A stretch of DNA of 57,454 nucleotides from Candidatus Peribacteria bacterium. GTDB lineage: Bacteria; Patescibacteriota; Gracilibacteria; Peribacterales; Peribacteraceae. Position numbers and translations under genes: made by a program. This document shows, one piece after another, positions 1 through 55,723 of the stretch. The stretch lies in assembly GCA_041691135.1 (NCBI GenBank), contig JBEPVF010000010.1, positions 1 through 57,454 on the forward strand. Direction: 5' to 3'. Positions within the stretch are counted from its first letter, which is position 1. Every line of letters starts with the position of its first letter. The notes under the pieces are model-generated. The model was not told the DNA's origin and did not search any database. It was given only the letters and a program-made list of their open reading frames with translations.

Positions 1-3000
1 GTAACGGATCTAATGGAAGCAATGGTTCGAATGGGTCCAACGGAAGTAATGGCTCCGGTTCCAGTGACAGCGCTAATTCAAGTAGCTCCACCATTGGTAC
101 TCCCGGTTTCAATTGTCCGGTCAATGGCCTATGGGCTGGTTCGAACGATCCTTTTTACTACAACAGCGGTCCACCCTGGACAGACATGCTGGCGCAGTAC
201 GATGCGCTGACCGGTTCTGATTTCGCTGCACCGCCGGCAAATACCACTGAAGCCTTCATTCGTTTCAATAATGTTCTGTATGCCGGTGGTAAGAGCGGCT
301 TCTTCTCCTGCAATGGCAATGTTCTTGGCACTATGCTCGACAGCGGAGATTACCGTGCCATGACCATCCACGGAAATCAGCTGTACATGGCGAAGGCGAA
401 CACTGGTTCCTCCGATCCTAACCAGGCCATGAAGGTGGTGCGGTACGATCCGGCTAGTGGATTTACGACGATCGGGACGTTCCCTGTCATCGACTCGCTC
501 ACCTCTTTTAATGGGTCCCTGTACGCCGGAACAAAAGAGGCGGTGTATCGCTATAACGGTTTCAGTTGGTTTCAGGTGGGACAGAATTTGGTGGGAAATA
601 CCGCTGCAACTTCTGTGTCGTATACCACCAATGCGCTTACCGAATTCGGCGGGCAGCTTTTTGCCGCCACTGGCGACAGCAATATTCACGGCTCGGTAGC
701 ACCGGCGCCGTTGAGCGGTACGAGCAAGGGTGGACGCATCTATCGGTTGGATGCGGGCGCATGGACAGATATCGCATTACCTGTGGCGAATAGCACCGAA
801 ATCCGCACGGTGAATGCATTGCAGGTATTCAATAGTCGTCTATACGCCGGTGTGACTGCCGTGGTGACGGTTGGTGCGTCACGTCATATGGCCGGTTTTA
901 TCTACGCATACGATGGGGTGAACTGGTCGATTGTCAGCCAGGAACTGGGTACTGACGTCAATGCCTTCGCCGTCTACCAATCGAATCTCTACGCAGGCAC
1001 AACGAATAATCCAGCCCAGACCTGCATGATGCCGAATGCACTCATCATATCGAGTTCATCATCACATAACATGTCGTCTACCGGTCCGATTTTCAATACG
1101 CAGCAGGGATACATGCCGCCGCAAGACTGGCGCAGTCAGTGGCAGGATTTCCTCGGCTCTTTCGTGCCGACGGCTCACGCTTGCGATGGTTACTCCAATG
1201 GAATCGTCTGGAAATATGCTGGCGGGACTACGTGGTCCATCTTCGGACAGTTTAACGACAACGTGCTCGCGCTTTTGGGTGATGCGGCTGGGACAGGAGT
1301 GGGAGGATCATCCAGTTCTGGAGGGGCGGGATCCGGACCACAATTGCAAGTGCTTGATGGGATGTCTGTTATTCCGAACGGTACAACCGTCATATTTCCC
1401 ACCATTCGACCAAACGACGCCGCGACTAAAATCCTCCTCGTAAAAAATATCGGCGACGCGCCATTGGTGTTGAGTAATATCAATATCGATCCACTGTTGC
1501 CGCTCAGCCGTTTGAATGGACCTGATCAGACAACCATTCAACCGGGCGATACTACGGCAATAGCGTACCTCTTCGATCCGCGAGGCGCTGAGGGTACTAT
1601 GCTCTCTCCTTTCTTGTCCTTCGATACGAACGACCCGGCTAATCCGAAATATAATTTCAAGCTCAGTGCCAGTTCGTACATTCCCTGCAAAGACGAAACC
1701 GCATTGCCGAACATGTGGATGGACGATGCCGAACTCGACGGCGCTTATCCGCTCCATGGCGGATGGACCACTGCGTCGGGTGTGGGGTGGAAAGGCAGCT
1801 TGCACCGTGTAAATAACCGTTTGATAGCCGTACCACAGGAATTCACGTTCTGCTTCAGTAATCTGACACCAGGTGCCAAGTACGAAGTGCGCGCCACGTG
1901 GCAGTCCCCAGTCGGCACACCGCCGGCAGGCAACGCACAGTTCCGGGCCTACGACGGACCGGTGACCGGAGCCAGTCACACTGCTGCAGGCGCCACAACT
2001 CCCGCATCGGTCAACGGTTTGAGTATGGATGGAAAAGTGAATGGCATTGCGCAGCCAACTGTCGCCGCAGGAGGTGCCACGTGGCAGACGCGTGTGTTCG
2101 ACGCCGTTACTGCCGCTGGTACAACATTGATTGTCGATATGCAGGGCGACATGAGCGCTTTCCCGGATGGTGTGTGGCTGGTGTGGAACGGTGGCTCATC
2201 CAGTAGTTCCTCGGTGCCACCCGGTAGTTCATCTTCGGTATCACCTGGTAGTTCCTCTATGTCGCCAGGCAGTAGTTCCTCGGTGCCACCCGGTAGTTCA
2301 TCCTCAGTACCACCCGGCAGCTCGTCGGTATCACCCGGTAGTTCCTCCGTGCCGCCAAGTAGCTCATCTAGCTCCTCGAATATCGGCGCATGTCTGTTGA
2401 TGATTTCCCAAGTGCAAGTGACGAACATCGGCCAAAACAGCGTCATCATCACGTGGAAGACGGATGCTCCTGCTGACTCGCAGGTGGAGTACGGCCCAAG
2501 TGCTGGTCCGCCCTACCAATCCACCACGGCCCGCGATCCGAATATGGTGATAAATCACAGCGTCACTCTGACCGGACTGACGGCGAATACCATCTACCAC
2601 TTCCGTGTGAATTCCAGAAAGTCGGCTTCCTGCGCCGTCTTCTACTCGTCTGATACCACATTCAAGACGGCGAGCGCGGCCAAGATCGAAGTATGGCAGG
2701 GAAGTACCTACATCGCGCCGGGCAGCACATTCGACTTCGGTGCAGTGCAGGTGGGTGCGTCGGTACCGCGCGTCTTCAAAGTGAAGAATGCCGGAACCGA
2801 CACGCTGACGGTGAACAAGCTCATTTCTGTGCCAAGTGGATTTACTATCACTTCTCCACTTTCTTCCACCCAGGTTACACCCGGAACATACGCAACCTTC
2901 ACGGTTACCATGGATACTAGTGACACGGGCACGCCAAATGGACCGGTGACTATTGCCAACAGCGATGTGACGAACAATCCATACGCATTCAAGATTCAAG

Positions 3001-6000
3001 GAGCAGTGACTCCCATCGCTGAACCGCACATTCAAATCCTCTTGGGGAGCGCCGACGTTGCGATGGGCAGCACGGTCGATCTGGGTTCGATCATGCAAAA
3101 CTCTGCTGTAGGAACGGGACGCCAGACCTTCACTATCAAGAACATCGGTACGGCAGATCTCGCCGTTTCCTCATACTATTTCTCGGGTAGTCCATCGATC
3201 ATTCCCAAGCTGACTACGCCATTCACTCTGGCACCCAACGCGACATCCACTTTCACGATGGAATTGGATCCTGCAACGCCCGGGGATTTTGTCGGACGCA
3301 TCTGGATCAGTAATGGCGATCAGATTCGCACGCCTTACACGTTCGATGTGCAGGGCACAGTCATGTCTCTATCGCAGCCGCATATGCAGGTTCTCGACGG
3401 CGGTGTCGATGTGCCGTACGGCTCGACCTTCGATATGGGATCTACGCAGTCGTACAGTAATCTCACCAAGACCCTCATGATCAGGAACATAGGAACGGCA
3501 GATCTGTCGATCGGACCAACCTTCACCTTCGATCCTGGTTCGAAGTTTTCCGTATCACGGTATCCGACGACCAATACGCTCACGCCGTACAGTCAATGGA
3601 CCAACAGTCCTTCTACCACCTTTGGTCTGACGGTAGATACGTCCGCAGTGGGAACGTATAACGGCTGGGTGAAGATCCAGAACAACGATCCATTCCGTAA
3701 TCCGTTCTTCCTCAACTTGACGGCCGATGTGACAACCAGTCCGAATTCCAAACTGCAAGTCCTGTGCGGCATCGCCAAGGTGAACAGTAGCGATACGGTG
3801 GACCTCGGAACATCGCCTGTCGGAACACCTCTCACGCAGACATGTACGGTTAAGAACATCGGCGCAGCATATCTCGTCTTGCAATCCATTAATGCCAATA
3901 ACACCGTTCCGAGCGGCTTCACTCTGGTGCAGGACTTTACCCAGACAAGTTTGGCGCCCAATACGTTCACGACGTTCAAAGTGAAGATCGATCCGGCGTC
4001 GGCCGGCACATGGACATGGGACCAGATGAAGATCGGTCATTCTGCTCCCAATGCGGTCAGTCCGTTCCTCCTTTCGTTCAAAGGGACTTTCAGTGGCGGT
4101 GGTGGCAGTAGTAGCAGTGGCGGTGGTGGCTCTACACAGCCCAAGATTGAAGTAAGTGCCGGCAACACAGTGCTCACGAACATGTCGACGACCTTCACGA
4201 CGCACTTGGGTTCCACGCATCAGAATGATCCGTCGAACGAGGCGTTCTATACTGTCAAAAACATCGGTAATGCCGCGCTCACCCTGCAGCCGATCGAGCT
4301 TGGCAACTCTGCGTTCAAGATCACGCTCAACTATGACCAGGCAAAGATGACGTTGCAGCCGGGTGACTCCAACACATTCCACTTGGGAATGGACACTACC
4401 AAGGCGCCGAACTCGTACGCCTCAACCGTGACAATCAAGAGCAACTCCGTCACGAGCAATCCGTTCGTATTCAACATTGACGGCACGATCACACCTGCGC
4501 TCAAAGATGGCATACAGTTTCAGTTCCTTCAGGGCCAGATACCCAAGAACAACGGCGGTGTGAACTTCGGCACGTACTACGTAGGAGATAATATAGCGGG
4601 CAACTCGTACATTACGAATGTCGGGAACGTAAACATCACCGTGTATCCCAGTACGTTCCAAGTGATTCCGGGCAACTTCTCGGCATTCACGAATAATCTT
4701 CCCGATACGGTTCTTTCGCCCAATCAGTCGATGCCCGTCTGGATGGAGTTGCCATCATCAAAGACTCAAACACCCGGCACTTTGTCCGATAACGTCTCTT
4801 TCATATGGACCAGTAGTCTGGTGCCAGGTAACCAGTCCTTCGGCTTCACTCTTACCGGATCCATCGTCGCGCGGCCGGCGCCGAAAATACAGGTATCGGT
4901 CAATAACGGTGGCACATCGACTATTCTGACGAACGGTGGTTCGTATGTTGCGTATGGGACGACAGTGCAGGGGGCAACCATCACAAAAGTCTATACGGTG
5001 AAGAACATCGGTAACGCGAATATGAACCTCAGCAATCTCACCATTCCATCCGGGCCGGGCTTTAGTGTGGTCCCCAGTGGACTCAGCAAGACAATGCTTG
5101 TACCAAACGATACTGCAACGTTCAGCATTCGGTTCGATGCTCTCTACGGAGGATTAAACAATGGCACGGTGTCGTTGACCAGTAATGATAATGAGAATAA
5201 TCCATTTGTTTTCTATCCATACGGGACGGTCCTTGCACCACAGATTCAATTGTTTGATGGACCGACGGAAGTGCTCGACAGTATCGGAACGGTGGACCTT
5301 GGCTCCGTTGCCATAACTAAGTCAGCCGGTCGTACTCTTACGCTCAAAAATGCCGGGAACGCGTCATTGACCGTGGGCGGCATCAATCCGTCCAGTCCGT
5401 TTGATGCCTCGGTATCTGCTTCTAACAGTGCGGCGTTTGCCGGCGCTACCCTCGCACCCAATGCGACAAAGACGTTCTACCTTTCGTTCAAGCCGACTGT
5501 GACAGGCGATGCTTCGACGAGCGTGAATTTCACGACGAACGATATGTTCCACAATCCGTTCGGCTTCACGGCGAAGGGCAAAGGGACGCCTCCGCCGGCT
5601 CCACATGTGACTGTTACGGTTGATAGTAATCCTCTATCAAATGGCGGTTCGCTTAATTTCGGCAGTCACGTATTCGGAGACACGCTCAGTAAATTGGTGA
5701 CAGTTGCCAATGATGGCACCGCTCCACTCGTTATATCGTCTATAACTATTCCAGCTGGCTACTATCTTTCATTCAATCCAACCACTATCCAGCCTGGCGA
5801 CGTCCACTCATGGTGGCTTACATTTACTGCTCCGGATCCTGCTCAAGATTGGAATGGCTTTGTAACGATCAACCATAATGCCCCAAATAATCCATTTACG
5901 ATTTCGGTTACGGGTACGTCATACTGCGGTGTGCCCTCATACGATAACAGCGCTATGAACGCTCAGTGCCCTGGACTTGGCGACTGCACGCTCAACAATC

Positions 6001-6368
6001 CCAATGCTCCCATCTACGACGACATAGCTCTTAAGCCCACTCCCAATGGCGACGGCATTCTGCAGGTCGCCTCCGGCTCGAATTGGACACTGCGTTGGTA
6101 CTTCCGCAACACGGGTAAAGCGTCGTTGCAGAACGTAGGTGTTGCGAAGGCAAATGTGCCGAACAACCTTTTCCAGGGTGGTGGTTCGATTAGCTGGAAT
6201 CCGATAACCTGGTCGCAGGGACAGGTGTCATGGGGTGATTTCTCTATCCAGATGCCGGCAACACCGGGGTACTACACGGTTGGAGGTATTCTGCAATCAC
6301 CCAGCTATGCCAATGGCGGGTCGGCACCATTCGGCCAAATCGCCGGTCAGTGTATTAAGGTTCAGTAG
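1..6368 (+). CDS. Giant secreted/surface protein, 5'-truncated by the window edge. Domains: (GSN)n repeat, beta-propeller region, golvesin/Xly-CBM-like domain, Ser/Pro linker, FN3, about 10 choice-of-anchor-D/ASH-type Ig repeats, C-terminal NBR1-like Ig domain
   Basis: The frame of ORF 186..6368 is open back to base 3 (NGSNGSNGS...), so the true start lies upstream. It contains ten recurrences of an 'I(E/Q)V...(F/V)D(F/L)G...KN(I/A)G..L' module and an FN3-type 'ITWKTD...VEYG...HSVTLTGLTANTIYHFRV'. Domain names are by-eye recognition. Confidence 0.85.
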   Translation, partial: NGSNGSNGSNGSNGSNGSGSSDSANSSSSTIGTPGFNCPVNGLWAGSNDPFYYNSGPPWTDMLAQYDALTGSDFAAPPANTTEAFIRFNNVLYAGGKSGFFSCNGNVLGTMLDSGDYRAMTIHGNQLYMAKANTGSSDPNQAMKVVRYDPASGFTTIGTFPVIDSLTSFNGSLYAGTKEAVYRYNGFSWFQVGQNLVGNTAATSVSYTTNALTEFGGQLFAATGDSNIHGSVAPAPLSGTSKGGRIYRLDAGAWTDIALPVANSTEIRTVNALQVFNSRLYAGVTAVVTVGASRHMAGFIYAYDGVNWSIVSQELGTDVNAFAVYQSNLYAGTTNNPAQTCMMPNALIISSSSSHNMSSTGPIFNTQQGYMPPQDWRSQWQDFLGSFVPTAHACDGYSNGIVWKYAGGTTWSIFGQFNDNVLALLGDAAGTGVGGSSSSGGAGSGPQLQVLDGMSVIPNGTTVIFPTIRPNDAATKILLVKNIGDAPLVLSNINIDPLLPLSRLNGPDQTTIQPGDTTAIAYLFDPRGAEGTMLSPFLSFDTNDPANPKYNFKLSASSYIPCKDETALPNMWMDDAELDGAYPLHGGWTTASGVGWKGSLHRVNNRLIAVPQEFTFCFSNLTPGAKYEVRATWQSPVGTPPAGNAQFRAYDGPVTGASHTAAGATTPASVNGLSMDGKVNGIAQPTVAAGGATWQTRVFDAVTAAGTTLIVDMQGDMSAFPDGVWLVWNGGSSSSSSVPPGSSSSVSPGSSSMSPGSSSSVPPGSSSSVPPGSSSVSPGSSSVPPSSSSSSSNIGACLLMISQVQVTNIGQNSVIITWKTDAPADSQVEYGPSAGPPYQSTTARDPNMVINHSVTLTGLTANTIYHFRVNSRKSASCAVFYSSDTTFKTASAAKIEVWQGSTYIAPGSTFDFGAVQVGASVPRVFKVKNAGTDTLTVNKLISVPSGFTITSPLSSTQVTPGTYATFTVTMDTSDTGTPNGPVTIANSDVTNNPYAFKIQGAVTPIAEPHIQILLGSADVAMGSTVDLGSIMQNSAVGTGRQTFTIKNIGTADLAVSSYYFSGSPSIIPKLTTPFTLAPNATSTFTMELDPATPGDFVGRIWISNGDQIRTPYTFDVQGTVMSLSQPHMQVLDGGVDVPYGSTFDMGSTQSYSNLTKTLMIRNIGTADLSIGPTFTFDPGSKFSVSRYPTTNTLTPYSQWTNSPSTTFGLTVDTSAVGTYNGWVKIQNNDPFRNPFFLNLTADVTTSPNSKLQVLCGIAKVNSSDTVDLGTSPVGTPLTQTCTVKNIGAAYLVLQSINANNTVPSGFTLVQDFTQTSLAPNTFTTFKVKIDPASAGTWTWDQMKIGHSAPNAVSPFLLSFKGTFSGGGGSSSSGGGGSTQPKIEVSAGNTVLTNMSTTFTTHLGSTHQNDPSNEAFYTVKNIGNAALTLQPIELGNSAFKITLNYDQAKMTLQPGDSNTFHLGMDTTKAPNSYASTVTIKSNSVTSNPFVFNIDGTITPALKDGIQFQFLQGQIPKNNGGVNFGTYYVGDNIAGNSYITNVGNVNITVYPSTFQVIPGNFSAFTNNLPDTVLSPNQSMPVWMELPSSKTQTPGTLSDNVSFIWTSSLVPGNQSFGFTLTGSIVARPAPKIQVSVNNGGTSTILTNGGSYVAYGTTVQGATITKVYTVKNIGNANMNLSNLTIPSGPGFSVVPSGLSKTMLVPNDTATFSIRFDALYGGLNNGTVSLTSNDNENNPFVFYPYGTVLAPQIQLFDGPTEVLDSIGTVDLGSVAITKSAGRTLTLKNAGNASLTVGGINPSSPFDASVSASNSAAFAGATLAPNATKTFYLSFKPTVTGDASTSVNFTTNDMFHNPFGFTAKGKGTPPPAPHVTVTVDSNPLSNGGSLNFGSHVFGDTLSKLVTVANDGTAPLVISSITIPAGYYLSFNPTTIQPGDVHSWWLTFTAPDPAQDWNGFVTINHNAPNNPFTISVTGTSYCGVPSYDNSAMNAQCPGLGDCTLNNPNAPIYDDIALKPTPNGDGILQVASGSNWTLRWYFRNTGKASLQNVGVAKANVPNNLFQGGGSISWNPITWSQGQVSWGDFSIQMPATPGYYTVGGILQSPSYANGGSAPFGQIAGQCIKVQ
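3..56 (+). repeat. Coding (Asn-Gly-Ser)6 tripeptide repeat with Gly at every third residue
   Basis: aac gga tct aat gga agc aat ggt tcg aat ggg tcc aac gga agt aat ggc tcc; the synonymous codons are diversified. Confidence 0.85.
2195..2378 (+). repeat. Coding SSS(S)V(P/S)PG tandem linker repeats in the giant protein
   Basis: About 7 copies of 'tcggtgccacccggtagttc'-like units encoding SSSSVPPG / SSSVSPG. Confidence 0.85.
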
Positions 6369-6415: not shown

Positions 6416-6490
6416 GTAACATTTTCCCTCTTCATGTCGTTTGAAATTATGTCTTTCCTCAGTACGATGCCTATCTTACCCACTATCACT

Positions 6491-8158
6491 ATGAAAAAAT
6501 CTCCGTTCATTGCGCTTGGCCTGCTTCTTCCGATTGTCGTGCTGGCGCTCGATTATTCCGATGCGACCTCGCAGTACAAAGATGGCCCTTTTTCCACGGC
6601 CGATTCGGCGGGCATCAGTTTGCTGACACATCTCGATGTGTTACAAGGAAATAGCGATGGACAATTCTTGCCTCGACGCACGCTCAATCGGGCCGAGTTT
6701 GTGAAGATTGCTATTCTGCTCGATGACCAGAAGAATGGGACCTCGGTGTCGTCGGCATTGACCGATCGATGTTTCCCGGATGTTGCGCCGTCGGCGTGGT
6801 ATGCTTCCTATGTTTGTGCCGCCAAGGCACGTGGAATCATTGCCGGGTACCCGGATGGTCTATTCCATGCTGATCGGTCCATCAATTATGTGGAAGCGGT
6901 AAAAGTATTGGTCAATACCTTCGGTTACGATGTGCAAAAGCAAACCGGCGACCAATGGTACACACCGTATCTGCGCGCCGCGCACACGCAAAAGACGGCT
7001 CTGCCGGAGACCGTTGCTCCTGATGCTTTTATCACGCGCGGCCAGATGGCGCGTTTGGCAGCGGCGTTTGAAGCGGAATCGAAAGGTGAACTTAATCTCT
7101 ATCGCCAGGCGGAAAAAGGCGTCGTTCCTTCCTCATCACTCTCCAGTTCTTCTGTGGTATCGGTAGGCTCCTCCTCGTCTGCGGTCTCCTCCAATGCATC
7201 AGCCTCATCCGTTTCTTCTGCCAGTTCAAATCTTCCCAATGCCGCCTTCCCTGCCCGGAGTCATTTCCTCCTCTTGGGTCAGCGCAGTCAGCCGATTGCG
7301 ACCGGTAACTATTTCCCGGATCTCGAACCGGTGCGTGTGCAGTCGACGACAGTGAAGTTGCGCAACAAAATTGATTCCATCAGCGCCATGTATCTTGTCG
7401 ATTCCCTGGGAACACAAGTCGGACAACTGACGCTTGATTCAAATGACAGTCATGATCTGACATGGAAAGGATCGTTCCCCACCGGCAGCAGCGCGTATGT
7501 GATCCCGCAAAAAACGAGTCGTGATCTGGCGATCGTCGTTCTGCTTAACGATCGCGACCATGGCGGATACGGCGGCGAGATCGTCGAAGTCACCTCGTGG
7601 TCACTGGCTGGCGAAGGCGTGTGGAGCGGTCAGAGCTACGCACCCAGCGTGGCGGACTTCACTTTCCCGAAGCACAACACGGCCCAGGCGACGATCACGA
7701 ATATCTACAATGCCCAATTGGGCACCGATGCATTGACGCCGGGAAGCAATCAAGTAGTCGGAGCCTTTACGGTGGTGGGAACGAGCATCTCGCCGGCCAA
7801 AGTAAAAGTGGAAGAGATGGATTTCCAGGTCGGAAAATCAGATACCGTCACGGTGACGAACTGGCAGCTCGGATCCATGGACGGTACGGATCTCGTCAAT
7901 TGCACCACCAGCGATACGACCGTCAGTTGTGGCAGTCTGCCCGATGGCATCGGAACATTGCAGGATGGCAAGCGAACTCTGCGTCTGTACGCGACTGTGT
8001 CCGTAGCTCCCAATGCATCGAATCCGTACTTGCAAGTGAGTCTGGCCAAAGCTGGCACGCCAAGTGATGGCGGTTCCGTTCAATGGACCGACGGCCAGGG
8101 TCATTACAATTGGGTCGAACTCGATTCGCCGATAGCGAAGGGGACGCTGTGGAAATGA
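6491..8158 (+). CDS. S-layer homology (SLH) domain surface protein with Ser-rich linker
   Basis: Signal peptide MKKSPFIALGLLLPIVVLA; SLH motifs 'GNSDGQFLP...LNRAEFVK', 'FPDV...WY...GYPDGLFHADRSIN', 'ITRGQMA'. Confidence 0.85.
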   Translation: MKKSPFIALGLLLPIVVLALDYSDATSQYKDGPFSTADSAGISLLTHLDVLQGNSDGQFLPRRTLNRAEFVKIAILLDDQKNGTSVSSALTDRCFPDVAPSAWYASYVCAAKARGIIAGYPDGLFHADRSINYVEAVKVLVNTFGYDVQKQTGDQWYTPYLRAAHTQKTALPETVAPDAFITRGQMARLAAAFEAESKGELNLYRQAEKGVVPSSSLSSSSVVSVGSSSSAVSSNASASSVSSASSNLPNAAFPARSHFLLLGQRSQPIATGNYFPDLEPVRVQSTTVKLRNKIDSISAMYLVDSLGTQVGQLTLDSNDSHDLTWKGSFPTGSSAYVIPQKTSRDLAIVVLLNDRDHGGYGGEIVEVTSWSLAGEGVWSGQSYAPSVADFTFPKHNTAQATITNIYNAQLGTDALTPGSNQVVGAFTVVGTSISPAKVKVEEMDFQVGKSDTVTVTNWQLGSMDGTDLVNCTTSDTTVSCGSLPDGIGTLQDGKRTLRLYATVSVAPNASNPYLQVSLAKAGTPSDGGSVQWTDGQGHYNWVELDSPIAKGTLWK

Positions 8159-8251: not shown

Positions 8252-9091
8252 CTAAAGGACTGCCTTCAATTCCGCCGCCATATTTTCCGCCGCCTTGCCC
8301 GCTGCTTCCCGCCAGTCTTTTCCGCTTGAAGCATAGATGATACTGCGCGAAGCGTTGACGATGGCGCCGGTGCCGTCGGGCACGAATCCATGTGCCGCAT
8401 CGGCGGCAGTTCCACCCTGGGCTCCGTAGCCGGGAATCAAGAAGGGCACGTGCGGCATCAGTGTGCGGAGATACTTCATTTCTTCGGGATAGGTGGCGCC
8501 CACCACTGCTCCGATGCTGGAAAAATTACTCGTTTCGCCCAGTACCGTTGTGCTCCAGCTCTCCACCAGCTGAGCCAGATGTTCGTGCACGACTTCATCG
8601 CCGATCGGCAGATCCTGCAAATCACCGGAGCTGGTATTGCTCGTCTTGACCAAAACGAAGATGCCTTTGTCGTTTTTCTGACAACGTTCGGCAAAAGGCC
8701 GAATGCCGTCGGATCCCAGATACGGATTCACCGTCAGAGCGTCGACCGGACTATCGGCATACAGGTAGGCATCGGCATACGCGTCGCAGGTCGATCCGAT
8801 ATCGTTGCGTTTGCCATCGGCGATCACGAGTAGATCTTTACTTTTGGCATACGCGCACAATTCCCAAAATACCTTCATGCCCTGCCAACCGAGGAGTTCG
8901 TAGTAGGCGAGCTGCGGCTTGATCACGCTGGCGATGCCGGCCACTACATCAACGATTCCTTTGCCGAAGATCAGCACGCCATCGGGATCGCGTGCGATAC
9001 CCTCAGGCAATTTGTCGAGTGCGGGATCAATGCCTACGCATACAGGAGACGTCTGTCGCGTGGCGGCGGTGAGGGCGTCGGCAAAATTCAT
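8252..9091 (-). CDS. pyrF: Orotidine-5'-phosphate decarboxylase
   Basis: CVGIDP, KPQLAYYE, catalytic DGKRNDIGST, VGAT, PGYGAQGG and NASRSI motifs. Start re-assigned to MNFADAL (9091). Confidence 0.95.
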   Translation of the reverse strand: MNFADALTAATRQTSPVCVGIDPALDKLPEGIARDPDGVLIFGKGIVDVVAGIASVIKPQLAYYELLGWQGMKVFWELCAYAKSKDLLVIADGKRNDIGSTCDAYADAYLYADSPVDALTVNPYLGSDGIRPFAERCQKNDKGIFVLVKTSNTSSGDLQDLPIGDEVVHEHLAQLVESWSTTVLGETSNFSSIGAVVGATYPEEMKYLRTLMPHVPFLIPGYGAQGGTAADAAHGFVPDGTGAIVNASRSIIYASSGKDWREAAGKAAENMAAELKAVL

Positions 9092-9101
9092 AGTCGAAGA
9101 A

Positions 9102-9995
9102 TTAGCAGTTGCCGCGTCGGCGCGGACTGCAGGGGGTGGTGGGACGTATTGGCGAAGATGATGGTGCGGGAGTGACCGATGGCTGCATGCCACTGGACGA
9201 TGGCAAGTGTGATGAGACGTCGATGGCATTCGTTGGAGCAATAACTGTGAGTGGTTGCGTGCTTGGTTGCTGGTTGCCTTGCAGAACGGCCGAGAAGTCG
9301 GAGCCATTCGCCACAGAGAAGTAGTATTTCAGTGACTGCAACAGTTCATCATTGTTGGATACTTCCGCTTTTACGTGAAGATTCAGGACTGGCACCGAAG
9401 TACTTCCATGCAGTTTGTCAGCCCATTCGCGCACCGAGGGCATTACCCGCCGGCGGAATTCACGGCTGAAAGTGAGCGAATACAGAGTAGTGTTCGTGTC
9501 CACAGTGGATGTCATTGTTAGCATCGTATCCAGCGACTGTCGTATCTCTTCGCGCATTTGATCAACATCGCTCTGTTGGCCGGTCGCGTTGGTGAGCGAT
9601 AGGGAATACCATTGTCCTACCTTCACATCTGCCAGGCTGGCGGCAATCTGAGCGTTGCCACCCGTATCCAGTGAATCGACAATGAAGTAAGCGGTCTGGT
9701 CGACCACTTTCACGCGAGCCGTTGTCTTCACGAGCTCCTTATTCATCAGAACATGCAGCGTAAACTTGATATCGGCCTGCATTGTCGCGATTTCTGTTCC
9801 TTCTGCTGATCCGCTCATCCACAGCGAGGCAGCGCCTTCTTTGGCATCAATATGGCCTTCCGCGCTGAAGGTTTGTGCCTGTGTCTGCTGCTGCAGAACA
9901 TCAAACAATTCACTGGGCTGCTGAAAGGCGGCCAGGGATAACTGAGGCACAAGCAGGATGCTTGTCGTACCGATGGAAGCGATGAGGCGACGCAT
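9102..9995 (-). CDS. Secreted hypothetical protein
   Basis: Signal peptide MRRLIASIGTTSILLVPQLSLA, a beta-rich body and a Pro/Ser tail; no recognisable catalytic motif. Confidence 0.7.
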   Translation of the reverse strand: MRRLIASIGTTSILLVPQLSLAAFQQPSELFDVLQQQTQAQTFSAEGHIDAKEGAASLWMSGSAEGTEIATMQADIKFTLHVLMNKELVKTTARVKVVDQTAYFIVDSLDTGGNAQIAASLADVKVGQWYSLSLTNATGQQSDVDQMREEIRQSLDTMLTMTSTVDTNTTLYSLTFSREFRRRVMPSVREWADKLHGSTSVPVLNLHVKAEVSNNDELLQSLKYYFSVANGSDFSAVLQGNQQPSTQPLTVIAPTNAIDVSSHLPSSSGMQPSVTPAPSSSPIRPTTPCSPRRRGNC

Positions 9996-26342: not shown

Positions 26343-26530
26343 ATGAGTGTGTGTGAGGAAATAAACTGTACATATAATACCATAAATTATCTAATTTAGC
26401 AAATACTTACAAAGGCGCCTATCGCTAAGGATTCAAGGGAATCAAGAGATTCAGGCGATTCAAGGGATTTTGTGAGTGGGCAAAAATCAGTGATCAGTGG
26501 TCAGTAATTATCAGCCTGAGCGAGACGCAG

Positions 26531-26682
26531 GCACGTCCAAACGGCCGTCGGTGCAGTTATGCTTGTCCCTGGAGTATCCAGGTGGGTGACCGCAACCACG
26601 GACCACGGCCCGCAGTGATTAAGTCTCCCGTAACAAGTTTCAGAGAAGAAACATATCTGCCCTAACGAGACGCCTAGACAAG
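26531..26682 (-). ncRNA. ssrS: 6S RNA (compact)
   Basis: On the minus strand the 5' gtctaggcg pairs with the 3' cgtttggac. It has an unpaired central bubble, GGGAG...CACCCACCTG (as recalled from Firmicutes 6S), a small hairpin cctgga/tccagg and CTGCAccgACGGC. A TATAGT -10 box at 26688-26693 lies just upstream. Confidence 0.75.
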
Positions 26683-26738
26683 CCATCACTATAACCGATG
26701 ACTTGGGTGAGGGTCTAGAAAATGAGAGAAATTTATTG

Positions 26739-38974: not shown

Positions 38975-39439
38975 CTAATGCAGGACGGCCTTCACGATAT
39001 CGTCGATCACCGCTTTGAGTGACAGTTGGAACTTGGGAAAGAACGCTTTGGCGCCCAGAGATTTGACGCGTGTGGCCGCATCGGGATTGGCCATGGAACT
39101 CAGAACAAAGACAGGTGTCGATTTGTTCTGCGTCGTACCAAGCGCCTTCAGGACATCAAACCCGTCGACGACTGGCATCATCAGATCCAATACGACGCCG
39201 TCGAACGTTTTGCGCTTAAGTACCTCGAGTCCCTGCGATCCATCGTAGCATTCCTCCACATCGAATCCGGCCTGTTGAAACTTCATTCGAAGCACGCGCA
39301 GCAGAATTTTGTCGTTATCAACCAGAAGAATCCGTTTGCCGTTCGAAGGCTTGTTCTTAGGGGCGACGATGTTCTTCGAACTGGCTGAACCCATCGTGCC
39401 CTTGGCGTTTTTTGCCGCTGATGCTTTGGATTTCGGCAT
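38975..39439 (-). CDS. Single-domain response regulator with Lys-rich N-terminal tail
   Basis: ILLVDND, LDLMMP..DG, LSS, FFPK; no output domain. Confidence 0.9.
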   Translation of the reverse strand: MPKSKASAAKNAKGTMGSASSKNIVAPKNKPSNGKRILLVDNDKILLRVLRMKFQQAGFDVEECYDGSQGLEVLKRKTFDGVVLDLMMPVVDGFDVLKALGTTQNKSTPVFVLSSMANPDAATRVKSLGAKAFFPKFQLSLKAVIDDIVKAVLH

Positions 39440-39499
39440 GGGGTTAGTAAGGGTAGCGGGTTGTGACTGCGGCAATTCCAGACAGATAAAAAAAGAGGG

Positions 39500-39988
39500 T
39501 CATGTGCGCGAGGTGATCGAATCAATTACTTCTTTCAGCGGCATCTGCATTTTGACAAAGAAATCCGTCGCACCCAACTTCATCACCAGATCAATCGTCT
39601 CCTGCGTTCGCATGTCGCTCATCACGAAAGTTGGCGTGTCTTTGTTCAGGGTCGTCTTCTTATCCTGCAATACATCGAAACCCGTTTTGCCCGGCATGAT
39701 CAGATCCAGAATTATTCCATCGAACTTCTGTTGCCGCATCGTTTTCAGCGCCATCTCGCCGTTATGTGCAACGGCCACATTACAACCGGCATTCTGGAAC
39801 TTTAGTGCCATCACCCGAGACAAAGCCGGATCGTCATCAACGACCAGAATATTTTTTGCAGAGCCATTGGTATCTTGTTGTACGGGAGCATCAGCCGGTA
39901 TCTCTTTCGATTTTTTACCCGCAGACTTCCGGGCTGGGGCGGCTGCTTTTTTGGTCGTTCGCTTGGTGGACTTCGGCTTTGGAGTCAT
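39500..39988 (-). CDS. Single-domain response regulator with Lys/Ala-rich N-terminal tail
   Basis: ILVVDDD, LDLIMPGKTG, MSD, FFVK; tandem paralogue of the downstream gene. Confidence 0.9.
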   Translation of the reverse strand: MTPKPKSTKRTTKKAAAPARKSAGKKSKEIPADAPVQQDTNGSAKNILVVDDDPALSRVMALKFQNAGCNVAVAHNGEMALKTMRQQKFDGIILDLIMPGKTGFDVLQDKKTTLNKDTPTFVMSDMRTQETIDLVMKLGATDFFVKMQMPLKEVIDSITSRT

Positions 39989-45442: not shown

Positions 45443-46744
45443 TCACTGAAGTATTTGTTGCTCGAACGTCGTGATTCCCATCGCTCTCAACATCATCTGC
45501 GCAACCTCGGCACGAGTGATCGGCTGCGCCGGTCGCAAGTAGGCGTTCACCCTTCCATTCGCATCCATATCGCCGTTGGCGATGCCGAGTGATACGGCGA
45601 TGCCGATCGCCGGAGCATAAGGATCGGCGAATGATACATCTTTCAGCATGCCTTGGTTCTGGTAAAACACGACCAGCGTCGGATCGGTCGAGACCGGGAA
45701 GCGGATGGCTTCGAGAACCGTTTGAATCACTTCCTCACGCGTGGCGACGGCGTGAATGTTCAGCGACGGCTGATCGAACACGGTCAAACCCAACATATGC
45801 GCAGCAGCGATGTACTGGTCTTCCCATGCTCCACCGTCAGCGGCGCTGTGCAGCGGATAGAGTTTCTGACGCGACAAAATCACGGACATCTTTGCCAGTT
45901 CGGCGTACGTCACGTTTCCCTGCGGACGGAATTCACCGGTCAGCGTACCTTGCGCATCACGGTAGCCGTCGGCGATACCGTACTGGATCATGCAGCCGAC
46001 GTAGTCGCTGTACCAGGCGTCGATTGATACATCATTGTAGGTAGTGCTCGCGACGACAAGATTGCCGTTGCGATAGGTCGTGACGCAGGCCGGCGCAATG
46101 TCTTCTTCTACAGAAACGTTTCCATCAACGGGAATATCTTCGATGTTCGGCAGACGTGTCGATGCGATGCCGTTGATACGATGTCCCATGTTGCCTTCGC
46201 GCGGTCCGGTGATGAACTCAGAATTCACCGGTATGCTCGAGGAAGATGAATTTGAAGAACTGCTCGACGTACCGAGCACACTTGACGATGAAGATGACGA
46301 AGAGGAAGAAGAGCTGGGCGTTGGCGAGGCACTCGACGAAGACGAGCTGCTCGAACTGCTGGAGGAGTCATCGAAGGGGGAGGGCAGGCTGCTGAGATTG
46401 ACCGAACTCGAAGTGTCTCCGTCAAAGGGGAGCGGAATGCTGCTGAAATCGAGTGAGCTGTCGGACGATGAGCTGCTGCTCGATGTATCGTCGAAGGGGA
46501 GAGGAATACTGCTGAAGCTGACGGAGACATCCGATGACGAACTGCTGTCGGAGCTCAATTCGCTACTTGCAGTGCTGTTGCTCTGCGCGTCACTTGCTTG
46601 GCTGCTTTCAGATGCAGAAGAGTTCTCACTGCTCTGGTCGCCCGTCGTTGCCGGAAGGCTCAGAAAATTAACCGGCTTCAGGACCATCAGTACAATCAGA
46701 AACAGGAACAGACAGCCGATGACGTTAAGAAGAATTTTGTTCAT
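45443..46744 (-). CDS. Membrane-anchored Ser-rich SLH-domain protein
   Basis: N-terminal TM helix, poly-Ser stalk with three 'SS(I/L)PxPFD' units, SLH motifs 'YNDV...WY...GYRD...FRPQGNVTYAE' and 'ITRAEVA'. Confidence 0.85.
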   Translation of the reverse strand: MNKILLNVIGCLFLFLIVLMVLKPVNFLSLPATTGDQSSENSSASESSQASDAQSNSTASSELSSDSSSSSDVSVSFSSIPLPFDDTSSSSSSSDSSLDFSSIPLPFDGDTSSSVNLSSLPSPFDDSSSSSSSSSSSSASPTPSSSSSSSSSSSSVLGTSSSSSNSSSSSIPVNSEFITGPREGNMGHRINGIASTRLPNIEDIPVDGNVSVEEDIAPACVTTYRNGNLVVASTTYNDVSIDAWYSDYVGCMIQYGIADGYRDAQGTLTGEFRPQGNVTYAELAKMSVILSRQKLYPLHSAADGGAWEDQYIAAAHMLGLTVFDQPSLNIHAVATREEVIQTVLEAIRFPVSTDPTLVVFYQNQGMLKDVSFADPYAPAIGIAVSLGIANGDMDANGRVNAYLRPAQPITRAEVAQMMLRAMGITTFEQQILQ

Positions 46745-46971
46745 GGGTGTGTTTTTTGGGCTCAAGCCATCAGGAAATCATACCCGAAAACACGCTTCTT
46801 TGCCATTGCCGTAGTCGTCATTTTGCAGACATATAGCATCACAATGAAAAGATCTAATAGCGTCAAGAATACGCCCGAAAACATACATAGCAAAGAATGG
46901 ACCTATTTTCTGTCATCAAAAGGGCCAAGTGTTCCCTTTCGGATCGGCACCCGCTATGCTCGACGCCACGT

Positions 46972-47532
46972 ATGGATGCGCAACTGATTCAGACGATTCT
47001 CGGCGGTCTGTTGGAACATCTGCAGCTCAAATGCAGCGGTATCGTCGTGTCGCCGGATGATGCCGGCATCGTGCGTATCGAAATCCAATCGCCCGAACCA
47101 AGCCGCATCATCGGTTGGCATGGCGAAACACTCAATGCATTGCAACACCTGCTCAAGGCGGTTATCCGCACGCAGCAAAAACTGGAGAAGGCACCCTTTC
47201 TCGTGCTTGATGTCGATGGCTACCGCAAAGGACAAGAAGAGAAAGTCTGCCGTGTTGCCGAGCAGAAAGCCGACTTCGTTCGTCGTACCGGCAGCCGCAT
47301 CGCTCTGGCACCGATGAGTCCCTACTTCCGCCGTGTGGTGCACATGTATGTGGCCAACAATCCAAAGCTGAGCGACCTCACCACCGAGAGCGTGGGCGAA
47401 GGTGATTATCGACAGATCGTGATGAAACTGAAAAATCCAAAAGAAGGCGGCGCGGGTAATCGCGACGAAGTGAGTGAAGAGCTGTCGCCGGTGATGGCAG
47501 ACGACGACGGCCTCGGCAATTTGGATGTGTGA
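46972..47532 (+). CDS. jag: Jag/KhpB (KH + R3H) RNA-binding protein
   Basis: IIGWHGETLNALQHL, DVDGYR, R3H motif 'RRVVH', TESVGEG..R. Confidence 0.88.
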   Translation: MDAQLIQTILGGLLEHLQLKCSGIVVSPDDAGIVRIEIQSPEPSRIIGWHGETLNALQHLLKAVIRTQQKLEKAPFLVLDVDGYRKGQEEKVCRVAEQKADFVRRTGSRIALAPMSPYFRRVVHMYVANNPKLSDLTTESVGEGDYRQIVMKLKNPKEGGAGNRDEVSEELSPVMADDDGLGNLDV

Positions 47533-47564
47533 TATCGGTGACGGGAAAATGGTACGATCGAAGT

Positions 47565-48467
47565 ATGCAGTTTGCCGTATCCGATGAGTTCAGACAGAGA
47601 GTAGTGGGTGCGTTTGGCGAACACGGAAAACAGTGGCTCGACGATCTGCCTTCTATCGTGGAACGCTGTGAGAAATATTGGCCCCTCCGCCTTGAACAGC
47701 CGATTCACACGCTCTCGTACAACTACGTTGTCCCGGCTGAGCGCAATGACGGAACAAAAGTAATTGTGAAAGTTGGATGCCCAAACCGGGAGCTGTTTAC
47801 CGAAGTGGAGGCGCTCAGAACATTTTCCGGGAACGGAGCAGTGCCGGTGCTCGATATGAATGCCGAATTGGGCGCGTTCCTACTGCCGTATCTAGAGCCG
47901 GGAACTACATTAAAGAATGTGCAGGAAAAAGATGACCGGCAAGCGACGGAAATCGCAGCAGATGTGATGCGACGACTACACTCCAACACATCTCACAGCT
48001 CAAATTTTCCGCATGTGAGTGATTGGGTAAAGACGTTCGAGCATGTGAAAGAGAGCGGAACTATTCCGACGCAGTTGCTTACGACGGCGACAGAACTTTT
48101 CCATGAACTTGATGCAACGAAGTCCGAAGAAAAATTGCTACATGGCGATCTGCATCACGAAAATATTCTCTTCGATCAACAGCGCGGCTGGCTCGCCATC
48201 GATCCGAAGGGTGTCATCGGCGATCCGGCCTACGAGACGGCACGTTTTCTGCATAATCCTCCGGGTTGGACGAGTGCGGGCGATCCTCTGGCAGCGGTAA
48301 AAATAAGGATCGATATTTTGGCTTCAGCAATGGGTTTTGATGCCAAGCGCATTGCCAAGTGGGCATTCATAGATTGTCTGTTATCTGCTGCGTGGACTGT
48401 CGAAGAAGGTGGCTCGGATTGGAGAAGCGGTGTGGCAGCTGCGGAAATATTTCAGACATTATTCTGA
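47565..48467 (+). CDS. APH(6)/hydroxyurea-resistance family aminoglycoside kinase-like protein
   Basis: 'WLDDLP', 'LLHGDLHHENIL', 'WLAIDPKG..GDPAYE'. TGGTACGAT box 6 nt before the ATG. Confidence 0.88.
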   Translation: MQFAVSDEFRQRVVGAFGEHGKQWLDDLPSIVERCEKYWPLRLEQPIHTLSYNYVVPAERNDGTKVIVKVGCPNRELFTEVEALRTFSGNGAVPVLDMNAELGAFLLPYLEPGTTLKNVQEKDDRQATEIAADVMRRLHSNTSHSSNFPHVSDWVKTFEHVKESGTIPTQLLTTATELFHELDATKSEEKLLHGDLHHENILFDQQRGWLAIDPKGVIGDPAYETARFLHNPPGWTSAGDPLAAVKIRIDILASAMGFDAKRIAKWAFIDCLLSAAWTVEEGGSDWRSGVAAAEIFQTLF

Positions 48468-53317: not shown

Positions 53318-53324
53318 TAGTCGA

Positions 53325-53549
53325 TCACACTGGTGCCAGTTTTCCTTCCATAAAGAACACTTCCGTCACGTCGACGTTGAGTGCGCGGGAAATTTTGTAG
53401 GCGAGAAGGATGGAAGGATTCGTACGGCCACGTTCGATACTCATGATAGTTTGACGCGAGACGCCGGTGCGCAGAGCCAGTTCTTCCTGGGTCATATTGC
53501 GTTCGAATCGCAGACGCCGGATGGAATTTTTTAATTCAATAGTCGACAT
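53325..53549 (-). CDS. XRE/Cro-family HTH regulator
   Basis: 'NSIRRLR...MTQEELA...VSRQTIMSIERG..NPS'. Confidence 0.92.
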   Translation of the reverse strand: MSTIELKNSIRRLRFERNMTQEELALRTGVSRQTIMSIERGRTNPSILLAYKISRALNVDVTEVFFMEGKLAPV

Positions 53550-53696
53550 GCAAGGGGAGAGAAAGTATGCAGGATCAAAGGACGAAAGTCGATGCTGTTT
53601 TTCGCGGAAAAACGAAGCCTCGGCATTGTACTCACGCCGTTGAAACGAGCAAGTAAACGACGGACTTTCCGCTTGATGACGGCTTCAAATACACGA

Positions 53697-55091
53697 TCAT
53701 TCCTTCTTGGCGGCGCGCAGTAGTTTTTTCTCGGCACGGACGACAAAGAAAGCGCCTCCTGCAACGAAAATAACCGTGGCGGTGCCGATGAGCGAGAGGA
53801 TGATGTGAAGATGTCCGCGCAGGAAGTAACCGATAGCCAGCAGGCATCCGGCCCACACCGCGCAGCCCAGAAACATAGCGACAAAGAAGAGACCGCGGCG
53901 CATATTGGTGGTACCGGCAATGAGCGCGGCGAATGGCCGCACGGCACCGACGAATTGCCCCAGAAAAATACTCACCCGGCCGAAGCGGCTCATAAACATA
54001 TCGACTGTGTGCAGTCGTTTTTCAGTCAGATAAAAGTAATGGGCCACGTCGCGCCCGTACCGTCGGCCGATCAGGAAAAGCACAGTGTTTCCAAGCGTCA
54101 GGCCTGCGACGGCTGCGATAAAAAATACCAACCCGGTTGAAATATCCGACACAAGCGTACCGGCAGTGATCATCGTAAAGACGCCCGGCGAAAAGAAGCT
54201 GAGCGGAGGAATGACTTCGGTGAGGGCGAATGCGAAGATGAAGTAGCCGCCATAGCGGTGCACCGATTGCTGGATGTAATGCGGATCCCACAAATCCTGT
54301 CCATGATAATGATAGGCGAGCAACAGGAGGGCCAACGGAATCAGATAAAAGGAGAAGAGCGCCAATCGAATATGCCCGATGGTACGACGCAACAGCGACA
54401 GCAACAGTGAACTGGTGGCAAAGGAAGCGATGATCGACGCGCTTACGAGTGGGACGGTCACCGTCGCGTGATCAAGCGTCGCGTCGCGCATCGACAGAAC
54501 GAGCGAGGCGACCAGGGTGGGAACAAGGAGCAGACAGGCGAAATCAAAACTATCGCGCCGCGACAAGCCCATGATGCGACCGCTGCCCGTCGCCAGAGCG
54601 ATGGACGAAAAACCCGGAATAAGCGAGAGAGCCTGGAAGATGCCGATGACGAACGCGCGCGGGACAGACAATGATTCGAGTGCCGTGGCCGCCGGAAAGA
54701 ATTCTGTAATCAGCAGAAAGACGCCCATCACGCCGAACGACCAGGCGAGAGATAGCGGATCGGGTTCGTAGCGTTGCAGCAAGGGACGATAGGCGAGTGC
54801 CGCAAGAAGGGTCGGCAGAATGGCTAACAGTATGAGGCCGAACAAGCGACGTGTAGCCGGATGACTGCGGATGACGGATGGACGGAGTCTGCTCCAGGTA
54901 CTTCTGTAGGTTACGATGAGCGCGAGAAGCGTGCCGGTTTGCAGTGCGGGGAGAAGCGAGTGCAAGACGTCGACATCAATATCGATCGGCAGCACGAGTG
55001 CCGGTAAAAGAAGATGTCCGGATGCTGACAGCGGCAGAATTTCTCCGATGCCTTGGACGATCCCGAAGAGGACGGCATATAAAATAGTCAT
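53697..55091 (-). CDS. UppP/BacA-like domain (catalytic residues substituted) fused to a DedA domain
   Basis: N-terminal 'GIVQGIGEILPLSASGH', 'QTGTLLA', 'GIFQALSLIPGFS', 'GLSRRDSFDF' match BacA. C-terminal 'TE...FFSPG', 'GNTVLFLIGRRYG', 'GQFVGAVR...AG' match DedA. Confidence 0.88.
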   Translation of the reverse strand: MTILYAVLFGIVQGIGEILPLSASGHLLLPALVLPIDIDVDVLHSLLPALQTGTLLALIVTYRSTWSRLRPSVIRSHPATRRLFGLILLAILPTLLAALAYRPLLQRYEPDPLSLAWSFGVMGVFLLITEFFPAATALESLSVPRAFVIGIFQALSLIPGFSSIALATGSGRIMGLSRRDSFDFACLLLVPTLVASLVLSMRDATLDHATVTVPLVSASIIASFATSSLLLSLLRRTIGHIRLALFSFYLIPLALLLLAYHYHGQDLWDPHYIQQSVHRYGGYFIFAFALTEVIPPLSFFSPGVFTMITAGTLVSDISTGLVFFIAAVAGLTLGNTVLFLIGRRYGRDVAHYFYLTEKRLHTVDMFMSRFGRVSIFLGQFVGAVRPFAALIAGTTNMRRGLFFVAMFLGCAVWAGCLLAIGYFLRGHLHIILSLIGTATVIFVAGGAFFVVRAEKKLLRAAKKE

Positions 55092-55243
55092 ACCTGATCA
55101 GAGCATACGCGATGGTTGCCGAAGTTCGAAGGCCAACAACGATAGGCGGCCTGTATCCTTCCAGTCATCAGCGCATAACTACGCTGTGCTGACTACCTGT
55201 CCTGAATGGCCATTCAGAGACATTTTTGATACCATTCATGTAA

Positions 55244-55723
55244 ATGACGTCCTCACCGTTCCACGGCATCTTCAGTTCCCTCGGCGAAGAGGACAGCGAA
55301 GCGAAATCAATTTTCTCGTTCGGTTCATCCAAAAAATCTTCAGTGCCACCTACTCCTCAACCTTCTGCCAATCATGCCGCATCACCGCAGGATGGCATTG
55401 GACGCATGGCAGTCGATATTTACGAGCAGGATGACTACTACATCATCAAGGCACCCATCGCGGGCGTACGCCTCTCGGATTTGGACATCGAAGTGAACGA
55501 GAACGTCCTGACCATCCGCGGGCACCGCCGCCAGACCGACATGCTTCCGCAGAATCAATATTATTTGCAGGAGTGTTACTGGGGTTCCTTCAGTCGTTCC
55601 ATTACGTTGCCGTGCCAAATCGATGCCAAGCGCGTGAAGGCGACCTTCAATAAAGATTGCATTCTGAAGGTGCTGGTGCCGAAGGAGGAGAAGATCAAGA
55701 TCGTGAGGATTGCGGAAGGATAA
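55244..55723 (+). CDS. Small heat-shock protein (Hsp20)
   Basis: 'VDIYE', 'LTIRG', 'ECYWGSFSRSITLP', 'ILKVLVPK', C-terminal IxI-like motif. Confidence 0.93.
   Translation: MTSSPFHGIFSSLGEEDSEAKSIFSFGSSKKSSVPPTPQPSANHAASPQDGIGRMAVDIYEQDDYYIIKAPIAGVRLSDLDIEVNENVLTIRGHRRQTDMLPQNQYYLQECYWGSFSRSITLPCQIDAKRVKATFNKDCILKVLVPKEEKIKIVRIAEG

Follow-up and report, generated by a model that had tools for sequence, protein, structure and literature searches.

What does a phosphatase domain still do for the protein that carries it once its catalytic residues are gone? The question is raised by a gene near the end of a 57,454-nucleotide contig from a Candidatus Peribacteria bacterium (GenBank assembly GCA_041691135.1, contig JBEPVF010000010.1, positions 1 to 57,454), called the window here. 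The gene product, P0001, is encoded by an open reading frame (ORF) of 464 amino acids plus stop on the minus strand (53697..55091), and joins an N-terminal BacA/UppP domain to a C-terminal DedA domain. A first-pass annotation, made from the sequence, had read the BacA half as probably catalytically dead and had proposed the fusion as a candidate new module for handling or sensing lipid carriers. The present analysis agrees with that reading of the BacA half. The explanation that we favour, with moderate confidence, is that P0001 arose by lineage-specific degeneration of a bifunctional carrier-recycling fusion, so that the DedA half would still work and the dead BacA domain would be a conserved but dispensable accessory.

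Loss of catalytic residues in the BacA half

The ORF and both of its domains were recovered as first annotated, with the strand now given as minus; a gene on the plus strand was ruled out, as that reading of 53697..55091 is interrupted by stops throughout. Pfam placed a BacA match (PF02673) at residues 6-255 (54327..55076, minus strand; E = 4e-40, 138.5 bits against a cut-off of 33.4) within a domain of about residues 1-262, and a DedA/VTT match (PF09335) at residues 302-422 (53826..54188, minus strand; E = 2.7e-13, 50.9 bits against 33.9) within a DedA part of about residues 270-464. Residues 3-253 could be aligned by HMMER to Escherichia coli BacA (PDB 5oon and 6cb2, E = 5e-19). An AlphaFold2 model, built from a 67-row alignment consisting mostly of intact BacA proteins, had a mean predicted local distance difference test score of 93 and a predicted template-modelling (TM) score of 0.76, and its N-terminal half superposed on 5oon in Foldseek with E = 1e-8, a target TM score of 0.80 and a root-mean-square deviation of 2.7 Å. 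A PDB sequence search with the DedA half gave no match at E up to 1. Loop charges were compatible with one coherent topology: six K/R fall in residues 62-85, seven in residues 340-372 and six in the C-terminal tail, while the interdomain junction (residues 263-285, 54237..54305, minus strand) starts with the acidic stretch YHGQDLWD, with no K/R and two D/E. These charges fit an extracytoplasmic junction after the last BacA helix, and E. coli BacA has likewise been proposed to end in the periplasm (PMC5852022).

The modelled fold is that of E. coli BacA, an inverted repeat with two re-entrant helix pairs, and the two proteins differ in the residues of the active site. In the HMMER alignment, the E. 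coli motifs EFLPVSSTGH, PGFSRSGAT and FAIYR are paired in P0001 with EILPLSASGH (residues 17-26, 55014..55043), PGFSSIALAT (residues 159-168, 54588..54617) and FSFYL (residues 246-250, 54342..54356), all on the minus strand. The first motif keeps E17 and H26 (E. coli E21 and H30) and has A23 in place of the nucleophile S27. In the second, S163 replaces R174, I164 replaces S175, A165 replaces G176 and A167 replaces T178. In the third, L250 occupies the R261 column.

The rarity of these changes was assessed in 180 aligned BacA-domain proteins, these being the 187 in hand minus seven that were DedA-part-only or PAP2-DedA proteins. The S27 column contained S in 176 proteins, A in two and a gap in two, and the R174 column contained R in 178 and S in two. 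Alanine in the first and serine in the second were found in the same two proteins, P0001 and P0002; a third carrier of both losses, L002, came from genome contigs. The remaining positions of the second motif were more variable: S175 was S in 161 proteins, A in 16, I in two and L in one; G176 was G in 154, A in 22 and another residue in four; and T178 was T in 160, S in 10, A in six and another residue in four. The R261 column, on the other hand, was R in 72, L in 57, C in 36, another residue in 12 and a gap in three, so that L or C occurred in 93 of the 177 homologues having a residue there. Among the 20 BacA-DedA fusions described below, 19 had YL, 16 of them with otherwise intact motifs (16 of the 17 intact-motif fusions). 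Because YL is normal in the clade, the change from R261 to L carries no information on activity and was rejected as a sign of inactivation. Of the three catalytic losses originally counted, therefore, those of S27 and R174 are real and exceptional (two of 180), while the third is present but clade-typical, and FSFYL is not diagnostic.

Across the whole domain, 29 columns were conserved at 85% or more among the 178 other BacA domains, of which 16 were kept in all three dead proteins and seven were changed in all three. Six of the seven shared changes converted active-site or neighbouring polar residues to A, S or I: S27A, R174S, S175I, G176A, T178A and S196A (E. coli numbers beyond 94 are taken from motif correspondence in this comparison). 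P0001 keeps the equivalents of E21, S26, H30 and S173, as well as conserved glycines and prolines; the two other dead proteins, L001 (the contig of P0002) and L002, have L in the E21 column and Y in the E17 column. In E. coli BacA, the S27A, R174A and E21A mutants were reported to have 0.013%, 0.13% and 1.4% activity, respectively, and none complements (PMC4641660). The S27 and R174 losses, together with the intact second motif of all 17 other fusions, bear out the pseudo-enzyme reading of the first-pass annotation, and on residue content the BacA half is very probably a pseudo-phosphatase.

Relatives, locus and selection

A word-indexed search returned only two fused relatives, P0002 (49% identity) and P0003 (40%). 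An exhaustive search of cluster representatives gave 16 fusions and five short DedA-only proteins among the best 150 matches, and a scan of species-representative genomes gave five related loci. Two of these, L001 and L002, are labelled Candidatus Peribacteria and encode proteins each 49% identical to P0001. L003, also from Peribacteria, matched the DedA part only; L004, from Candidatus Peregrinibacteria, matched over its full length at 37% identity; and L005, from Peribacteria, matched the DedA part only, at 37%. A three-sequence profile of the dead proteins was then scored against the best 8000 candidates by shared words from a collection of 5.8 billion proteins, and at E up to 1e-30 it returned those three and P0003, with no further dead-clade member. 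ESM Atlas yielded generic BacA clusters only, at 0.79, and no new lead. Two of the short DedA proteins, P0049 and P0056, start within the alignment to the last BacA helix (query residues 249 and 251), and may be truncated fusion predictions.

Among the 20 fusions, SAS and SSIALAT were found in three (P0001, L001 and L002). All 17 others kept SR in the second motif, and all 15 of the others with the N-terminus present had E..P.SS[SDT]GH. The intact-motif fusion is therefore the norm among relatives (17/20). The intact proteins L004, P0003, P0039-P0047, P0050, P0052, P0055, P0061 and P0082 have the architecture, length, DedA tips (PG[VI...] and GQF) and YL of P0001, but keep the complete catalytic motifs that P0001 and its two closest relatives lack. 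Conservation of the losses in orthologous fusions, raised in the first-pass annotation, thus holds for the two closest (49% identity) and not beyond: the residues were lost in this lineage only, and more distant orthologues at 37-40% identity (P0003, L004 and others) have full catalytic motifs. Within the dead lineage the changed motif, PG.SSIALATGS, is identical in proteins only 49% identical overall, which are separated by only five gap columns and have an open frame.

One fusion stands apart. P0178 (492 amino acids) is canonical in both halves by NCBIfam, with 330 bits for the UppP half against a cut-off of 262 and 250 bits for the DedA half against 236, and it has the motifs PGD, ARF and YR. 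It lies beside E. coli BacA in the BacA tree. This indicates that P0178 was formed independently, and that BacA-DedA fusion arose at least twice.

The dead fusions share their locus with an intact one. The gene order in the window is GalU, an unnamed ORF, Hsp20 (55244..55723, plus strand, upstream of the fusion and divergent from it), the fusion, a gene for a helix-turn-helix (HTH) protein of XRE type on the same strand, and RecJ. L004 has the same order around an intact fusion (GalU, unnamed ORF, Hsp20, intact fusion, HTH, RecJ), and L001 and L002 have Hsp20, dead fusion, HTH and RecJ. L003 has GalU nearby, then Hsp20, a 214-residue DedA protein without a BacA part and the HTH gene, and the spacer there is only about 230 bases. 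RecJ is next in the window, L001, L002 and L004, the L003 contig ending before that point, and GalU is near the locus in the window, L003 and L004.

A tree of DedA domains (27 rows, rooted on P0178, with a largely unresolved backbone) recovered the dead fusions as monophyletic with support of 100/98. Their sister was a DedA-only pair, L003 and P0048 (96/86), and all five grouped together at 98/98. The dead clade and the DedA-only pair in turn grouped with the intact fusions L004, P0003 and P0041 and the short protein P0049 (91/93, not starred). In the BacA-domain tree the backbone was unresolved, and the dead clade joined a long-branch stand-alone protein at 93/74. Parsimony and synteny together indicate descent from an intact fusion at this locus, with catalysis lost along one line, before or after it split from its sister, and the BacA domain lost altogether in the sister.

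To measure selection, nonsynonymous-to-synonymous rate ratios (dN/dS) were calculated by the Nei-Gojobori method for L001 against L002 (86% identical, dS of about 0.45, zero indels) with 2000 bootstraps; comparisons with P0001 were saturated (dS 1.3-1.8) and hence were not used. The BacA domain (residues 1-262) gave a dN/dS of 0.158 (bootstrap 95% confidence interval 0.10-0.23, highest bootstrap 0.33), and the DedA domain (residues 286-464) gave 0.221 (0.13-0.35, highest bootstrap 0.52). The dead BacA domain is under purifying selection and is not in neutral decay, its ratio lying below 1, the limit that the first-pass annotation had set as a check. Its constraint is nevertheless relaxed relative to that on DedA in the dead lineage. 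Across 45 intact-intact pairs, BacA identity divided by DedA identity had a median of 1.15 (range 0.94-1.82), compared with a median of 0.78 across 30 dead-intact pairs and a value of 0.74 for P0001 and L001, and the stem branches of the dead clade in the BacA tree were 1.14 and 1.26 long, against 0.1-0.3 for most inner branches.

The HTH gene next to the fusion (74 amino acids, 53325..53549, minus strand) begins 147 bases downstream, and is possibly co-transcribed with it. Both this gene and Hsp20 are neighbours in L001-L004, four of the five related loci; the HTH homologues lie at 11392..11823 in L001, 2990..3265 in L002, 10644..11012 in L003 and 11524..11748 in L004. The HTH protein is nearly invariant, with four of 74 residues differing between the window and L001, while the fusions at the same two loci are 49% identical, and its gene holds its position whichever neighbour it has: the fusion, intact or dead, or a DedA gene by itself. 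No promoter-like site was found in 53200-55400, terminator-like sites there were not clearly above shuffles, and an Rfam scan of the window gave no match near the fusion gene.

The DedA half and the competing explanations

The degeneration that we favour would have started from a protein that carried out two consecutive steps in one polypeptide. The ancestral BacA half would have hydrolysed undecaprenyl (polyprenyl) pyrophosphate (C55-PP) on the outer face of the membrane, and the ancestral DedA half would have returned the monophosphate to the inner face. In the Peribacteria sub-lineage of the window, the BacA active site then lost its serine nucleophile, its arginine and the P-loop-like residues that hold the pyrophosphate, which would leave no phosphatase function. 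The DedA half, still intact, would do the work, presumably by translocating polyprenyl phosphate. The BacA domain, though dead, would persist under purifying selection as a membrane scaffold that serves the DedA half without catalysis, and it may still dock the polyprenyl chain. Hydrolysis of the pyrophosphate would fall to another enzyme encoded elsewhere. The complete Peribacteria genomes described by Anantharaman et al. are reported to encode peptidoglycan synthesis and a mevalonate isoprenoid pathway, without fatty-acid synthesis (PMC4736985). A carrier-lipid cycle, and with it a working C55-PP phosphatase elsewhere in the genome, is therefore expected, whereas the dependence on host polyprenyl lipids suggested by the first-pass annotation is not.

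An alternative that we consider unlikely, though it survives better than the others, is that the dead domain has gained a new active role: as a non-catalytic receptor that picks up polyprenyl-(pyro)phosphate, or uncharged polyprenol, from the outer leaflet and delivers it to DedA, as a contributor to flipping by way of its transporter-like inverted-repeat fold, or as a sensor. Purifying selection (BacA dN/dS 0.16) and the kept fold are in its favour, and the identity of PG.SSIALATGS at 49% overall identity resembles a new conserved state rather than drift. The inverted-repeat topology of BacA has also been taken as a hint of flippase activity (PMC5852022). The nature of the changes, however, argues otherwise. 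Six polar active-site or neighbouring residues became small and apolar, and E21 was also lost in L001 and L002, as though the ligands of the head group had been removed and not re-tuned; this speaks against the retained (pyro)phosphate binding envisaged in the first-pass annotation. Moreover, the sister lineage has no BacA domain at the same locus, which suggests that the domain can be done without and is not the heart of a new module for sensing or scavenging, and BacA evolved faster than DedA only in the dead lineage.

The favoured degeneration also takes the DedA half to be a carrier translocase. Residues were compared with E. coli YqjA through an alignment of the clade profile. The tip of re-entrant helix 1, EVIPPLSFFSPGV (54180..54218, minus strand), keeps E292 (YqjA E39) and has V304 in place of D51; the tip of re-entrant helix 2, GQFVGAVRP (53934..53960, minus strand), has Q379 in place of R130 and keeps R385 (R136). 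The equivalents of E39 and R136 were each invariant in 27 of 27 DedA domains, whereas D occurred in the D51 column in one (P0178) and R in the R130 column in two (P0050 and P0178). The changes from PGD to PGV and from GRF to GQF pointed out in the first-pass annotation are therefore present but not special to P0001, a peculiarity that was ruled out: they run through the whole fusion clade of Peregrinibacteria and have nothing to do with the death of BacA.

These tips leave room for a second alternative, that the DedA half is a phospholipid scramblase-like DedA and not a polyprenyl-phosphate flippase, and that the fusion serves something besides carrier recycling. For COG0586 proteins, residues of both re-entrant tips have been described as essential, and for Todor et al. 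missing acidic tip residues, with one or both basic ones gone as well, point to a DedA that is not an undecaprenyl-phosphate flippase (PMC10127716). R112 and R118 of UptA each contribute to binding of undecaprenyl phosphate (C55-P) according to Oluwole et al., who also cite a functional importance of R130 in E. coli (PMC11474028). Acidic D51 and one basic residue of the two at the tips are missing from the clade, features from which Todor et al. argue that COG0398 proteins do not flip undecaprenyl phosphate, and BLASTP of the DedA parts of P0001 and P0002 slightly favoured YdjZ (37 and 46 bits) over YqjA (32 and 39 bits). The clade profile, by contrast, preferred YqjA (COG0586, 45 bits) to YdjZ (COG0398, 31 bits), YdjX (9.5 bits) and YqaA (COG1238, 7 bits), and the only NCBIfam matches of the DedA half were the UptA and PRK10847 models (37.1 bits against a cut-off of 300, and 29.8 against 250). 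By these scores the subfamily is ambiguous. In addition, the E39 and R136 equivalents are universal in the set, and 20 of the proteins examined join this domain to one of the C55-PP phosphatase family. In L005, a stand-alone DedA of the same broad clade lies next to, and divergent from, a gene of Bac_transf, the polyprenyl-phosphate sugar-phosphate transferase family (6636..8099, minus strand, and 8617..9252, plus strand). Repeated fusion to BacA and this neighbour point towards an undecaprenyl-phosphate type of role. Polyprenyl-phosphate transport is thus the likelier function to be assigned to the DedA half by comparison, and the scramblase alternative appears rather improbable.

It is highly unlikely that P0001 is still a C55-PP phosphatase through shifted residues, with S22 or S24 as nucleophile and another basic residue acting for R174. 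S22, S24, H26 and E17 are all present and the domain is under purifying selection, as such a reading would have it. The S27A mutant of E. coli, however, retains S26 and T28 and yet has only the residual activity given above (PMC4641660), and S24 and S22 are what most homologues have in those columns (S in 117 and 178 of the 180, respectively), so they are no new nucleophile. Likewise, R172 is R in most intact fusions too and so is not compensatory. A replacement nucleophile or a new basic residue near the second motif was looked for and none was seen; S22, S24 and R172, being clade-typical, were all rejected as compensating residues. The whole second motif is apolar (SSIALA), and E21 is missing from L001 and L002. 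P0001 fell below the cut-off of all 12 NCBIfam UppP equivalog models, with a best score of 113.4 bits against 260; intact relatives, at 171-185 bits, were also under the cut-off. The weakest alternative, that the BacA domain is a functionless relic heading for deletion and looks conserved because little time has passed since inactivation, draws on its absence from the sister locus and its faster evolution in the dead lineage, but is already hard to hold against a dN/dS of 0.16 with none of 2000 bootstraps above 0.33 at a dS of 0.45 and no indels (L001 against L002), an open frame with five gap columns at 49% identity, and retention of 16 of 29 family-conserved columns in all three proteins.

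Several points weigh against degeneration to an accessory domain as we have set it out. The loss of C55-PP phosphatase activity is inferred from E. coli mutants. No second BacA or PAP2 phosphatase was found by tblastn (two BacA queries and one PAP2-DedA query) in the 57-kb window or the five related loci, which says little on the whole genome, and the Pfam scan of 47 window ORFs gave no other C55-PP phosphatase. With no equivalents of D51 and R130 (UptA R112), the clade as a whole is uncertain in both its transporter role and its substrate. Only three members of the dead clade are known, and two of these share 86% identity. As the BacA tree is unresolved, the attachment of the dead domains is unplaced, and their common origin with the intact fusions derives from the DedA tree and synteny. 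Since the AlphaFold2 alignment was mostly of intact BacA proteins, the good model shows only that P0001 is compatible with the fold. Finally, the purifying selection on the dead domain means that it still has some job, of which a scaffold is the least specific reading.

Related architectures, the surrounding window and implications

Joining a carrier phosphatase to a candidate translocase is not in itself new. PAP2-DedA and DedA-PAP2 fusions, and dedA genes beside uppP, follow the same logic and have been used by their authors as evidence for undecaprenyl-phosphate flipping. The preprint of Roney and Rudner gives dedA-pap2 fusions as about 1.3% of dedA genes and describes dedA adjacent to uppP (10.1101/2022.02.03.479048), and Todor et al. 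list rhodanese and PAP2 as fusion partners of COG0586 (PMC10127716). In those fusions the phosphatase is from the unrelated PAP2 family and is assumed active, while P0001 has BacA. Two of our search matches, P0037 and P0038, are PAP2-DedA fusions, and P0001 has no Pfam match to PAP2 (PF01569), so it is an analogue and not a member of that group. Sit et al. (2022) describe DUF368-BacA, in which BacA is joined to a candidate C55-P translocase as in P0001 but of another family, and several combinations of DedA with PAP2; in their Supplementary Table 3, the head row of the DedA sheet includes no column for BacA (PMC9876793). No described BacA-DedA fusion was found in the portions of the literature available, which does not prove absence, domain-architecture databases having been outside the search. 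Compared with E. coli BacA itself (5oon, 6cb2), P0001 shares Pfam family and fold in its BacA half, and differs in the six substituted residues, the C-terminal DedA fusion and the missed UppP equivalog cut-offs. Among characterised relatives, UptA (Bacillus subtilis YngC) and E. coli YqjA/YghB (COG0586) score best with the DedA half; the equivalents of E39 and R136 (UptA R118) are kept, whereas those of D51 and R130 (UptA R112) are V and Q, and scores are far under the equivalog cut-offs.

The window also contains peptidoglycan-remodelling genes, namely an amidase with a SpoIID domain, an S11 carboxypeptidase and two M23 peptidases, as well as SLH-domain proteins and glycosyltransferases. A surface protein of more than 2,060 amino acids runs off the 5' end (3..6368, plus strand), with HYDIN/VesB-like immunoglobulin, DUF1573, fn3 and purple-acid-phosphatase N-terminal domains; an SLH-domain protein follows it at 6434..8158, and a second lies at 45443..46765. 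The ORF at 47529..48467 (plus strand) matches the family of APH(6) and hydroxyurea kinases (PF04655, E = 2e-44) and so resembles a resistance kinase, here in a genome of candidate phyla radiation type. Two adjacent stand-alone response-regulator receiver genes (38975..39475 and 39500..39988, both minus strand) have no detected output domain, and no histidine kinase was detected among the window ORFs scanned. A 6S RNA match was found by Rfam at 26530..26683 (minus strand, 47.2 bits against a gathering threshold of 46.4).

The BacA-DedA form, known here from 20 proteins and at least two independent origins, extends the argument for DedA in carrier recycling to a second phosphatase family. Two tip residues held essential in the DedA flippases studied so far, one acidic and one basic, are missing from the whole fusion clade, so that the mechanism of its DedA domains is a question in itself. 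If simple degeneration is true, P0001 is no more than a neat case of pseudo-enzyme evolution. There is a smaller chance that the dead BacA is a natural separation-of-function variant, in which a phosphatase-independent job with the carrier, whether docking it, passing it to DedA or helping to flip it, has been kept by selection; the suspected transporter-like role of BacA would then be testable in a protein that is unable to hydrolyse. In either case, one syntenic locus offers a natural series of intact fusion, dead fusion under selection and DedA alone. This series can show which half is indispensable, and whether the BacA fold does anything besides hydrolysis.

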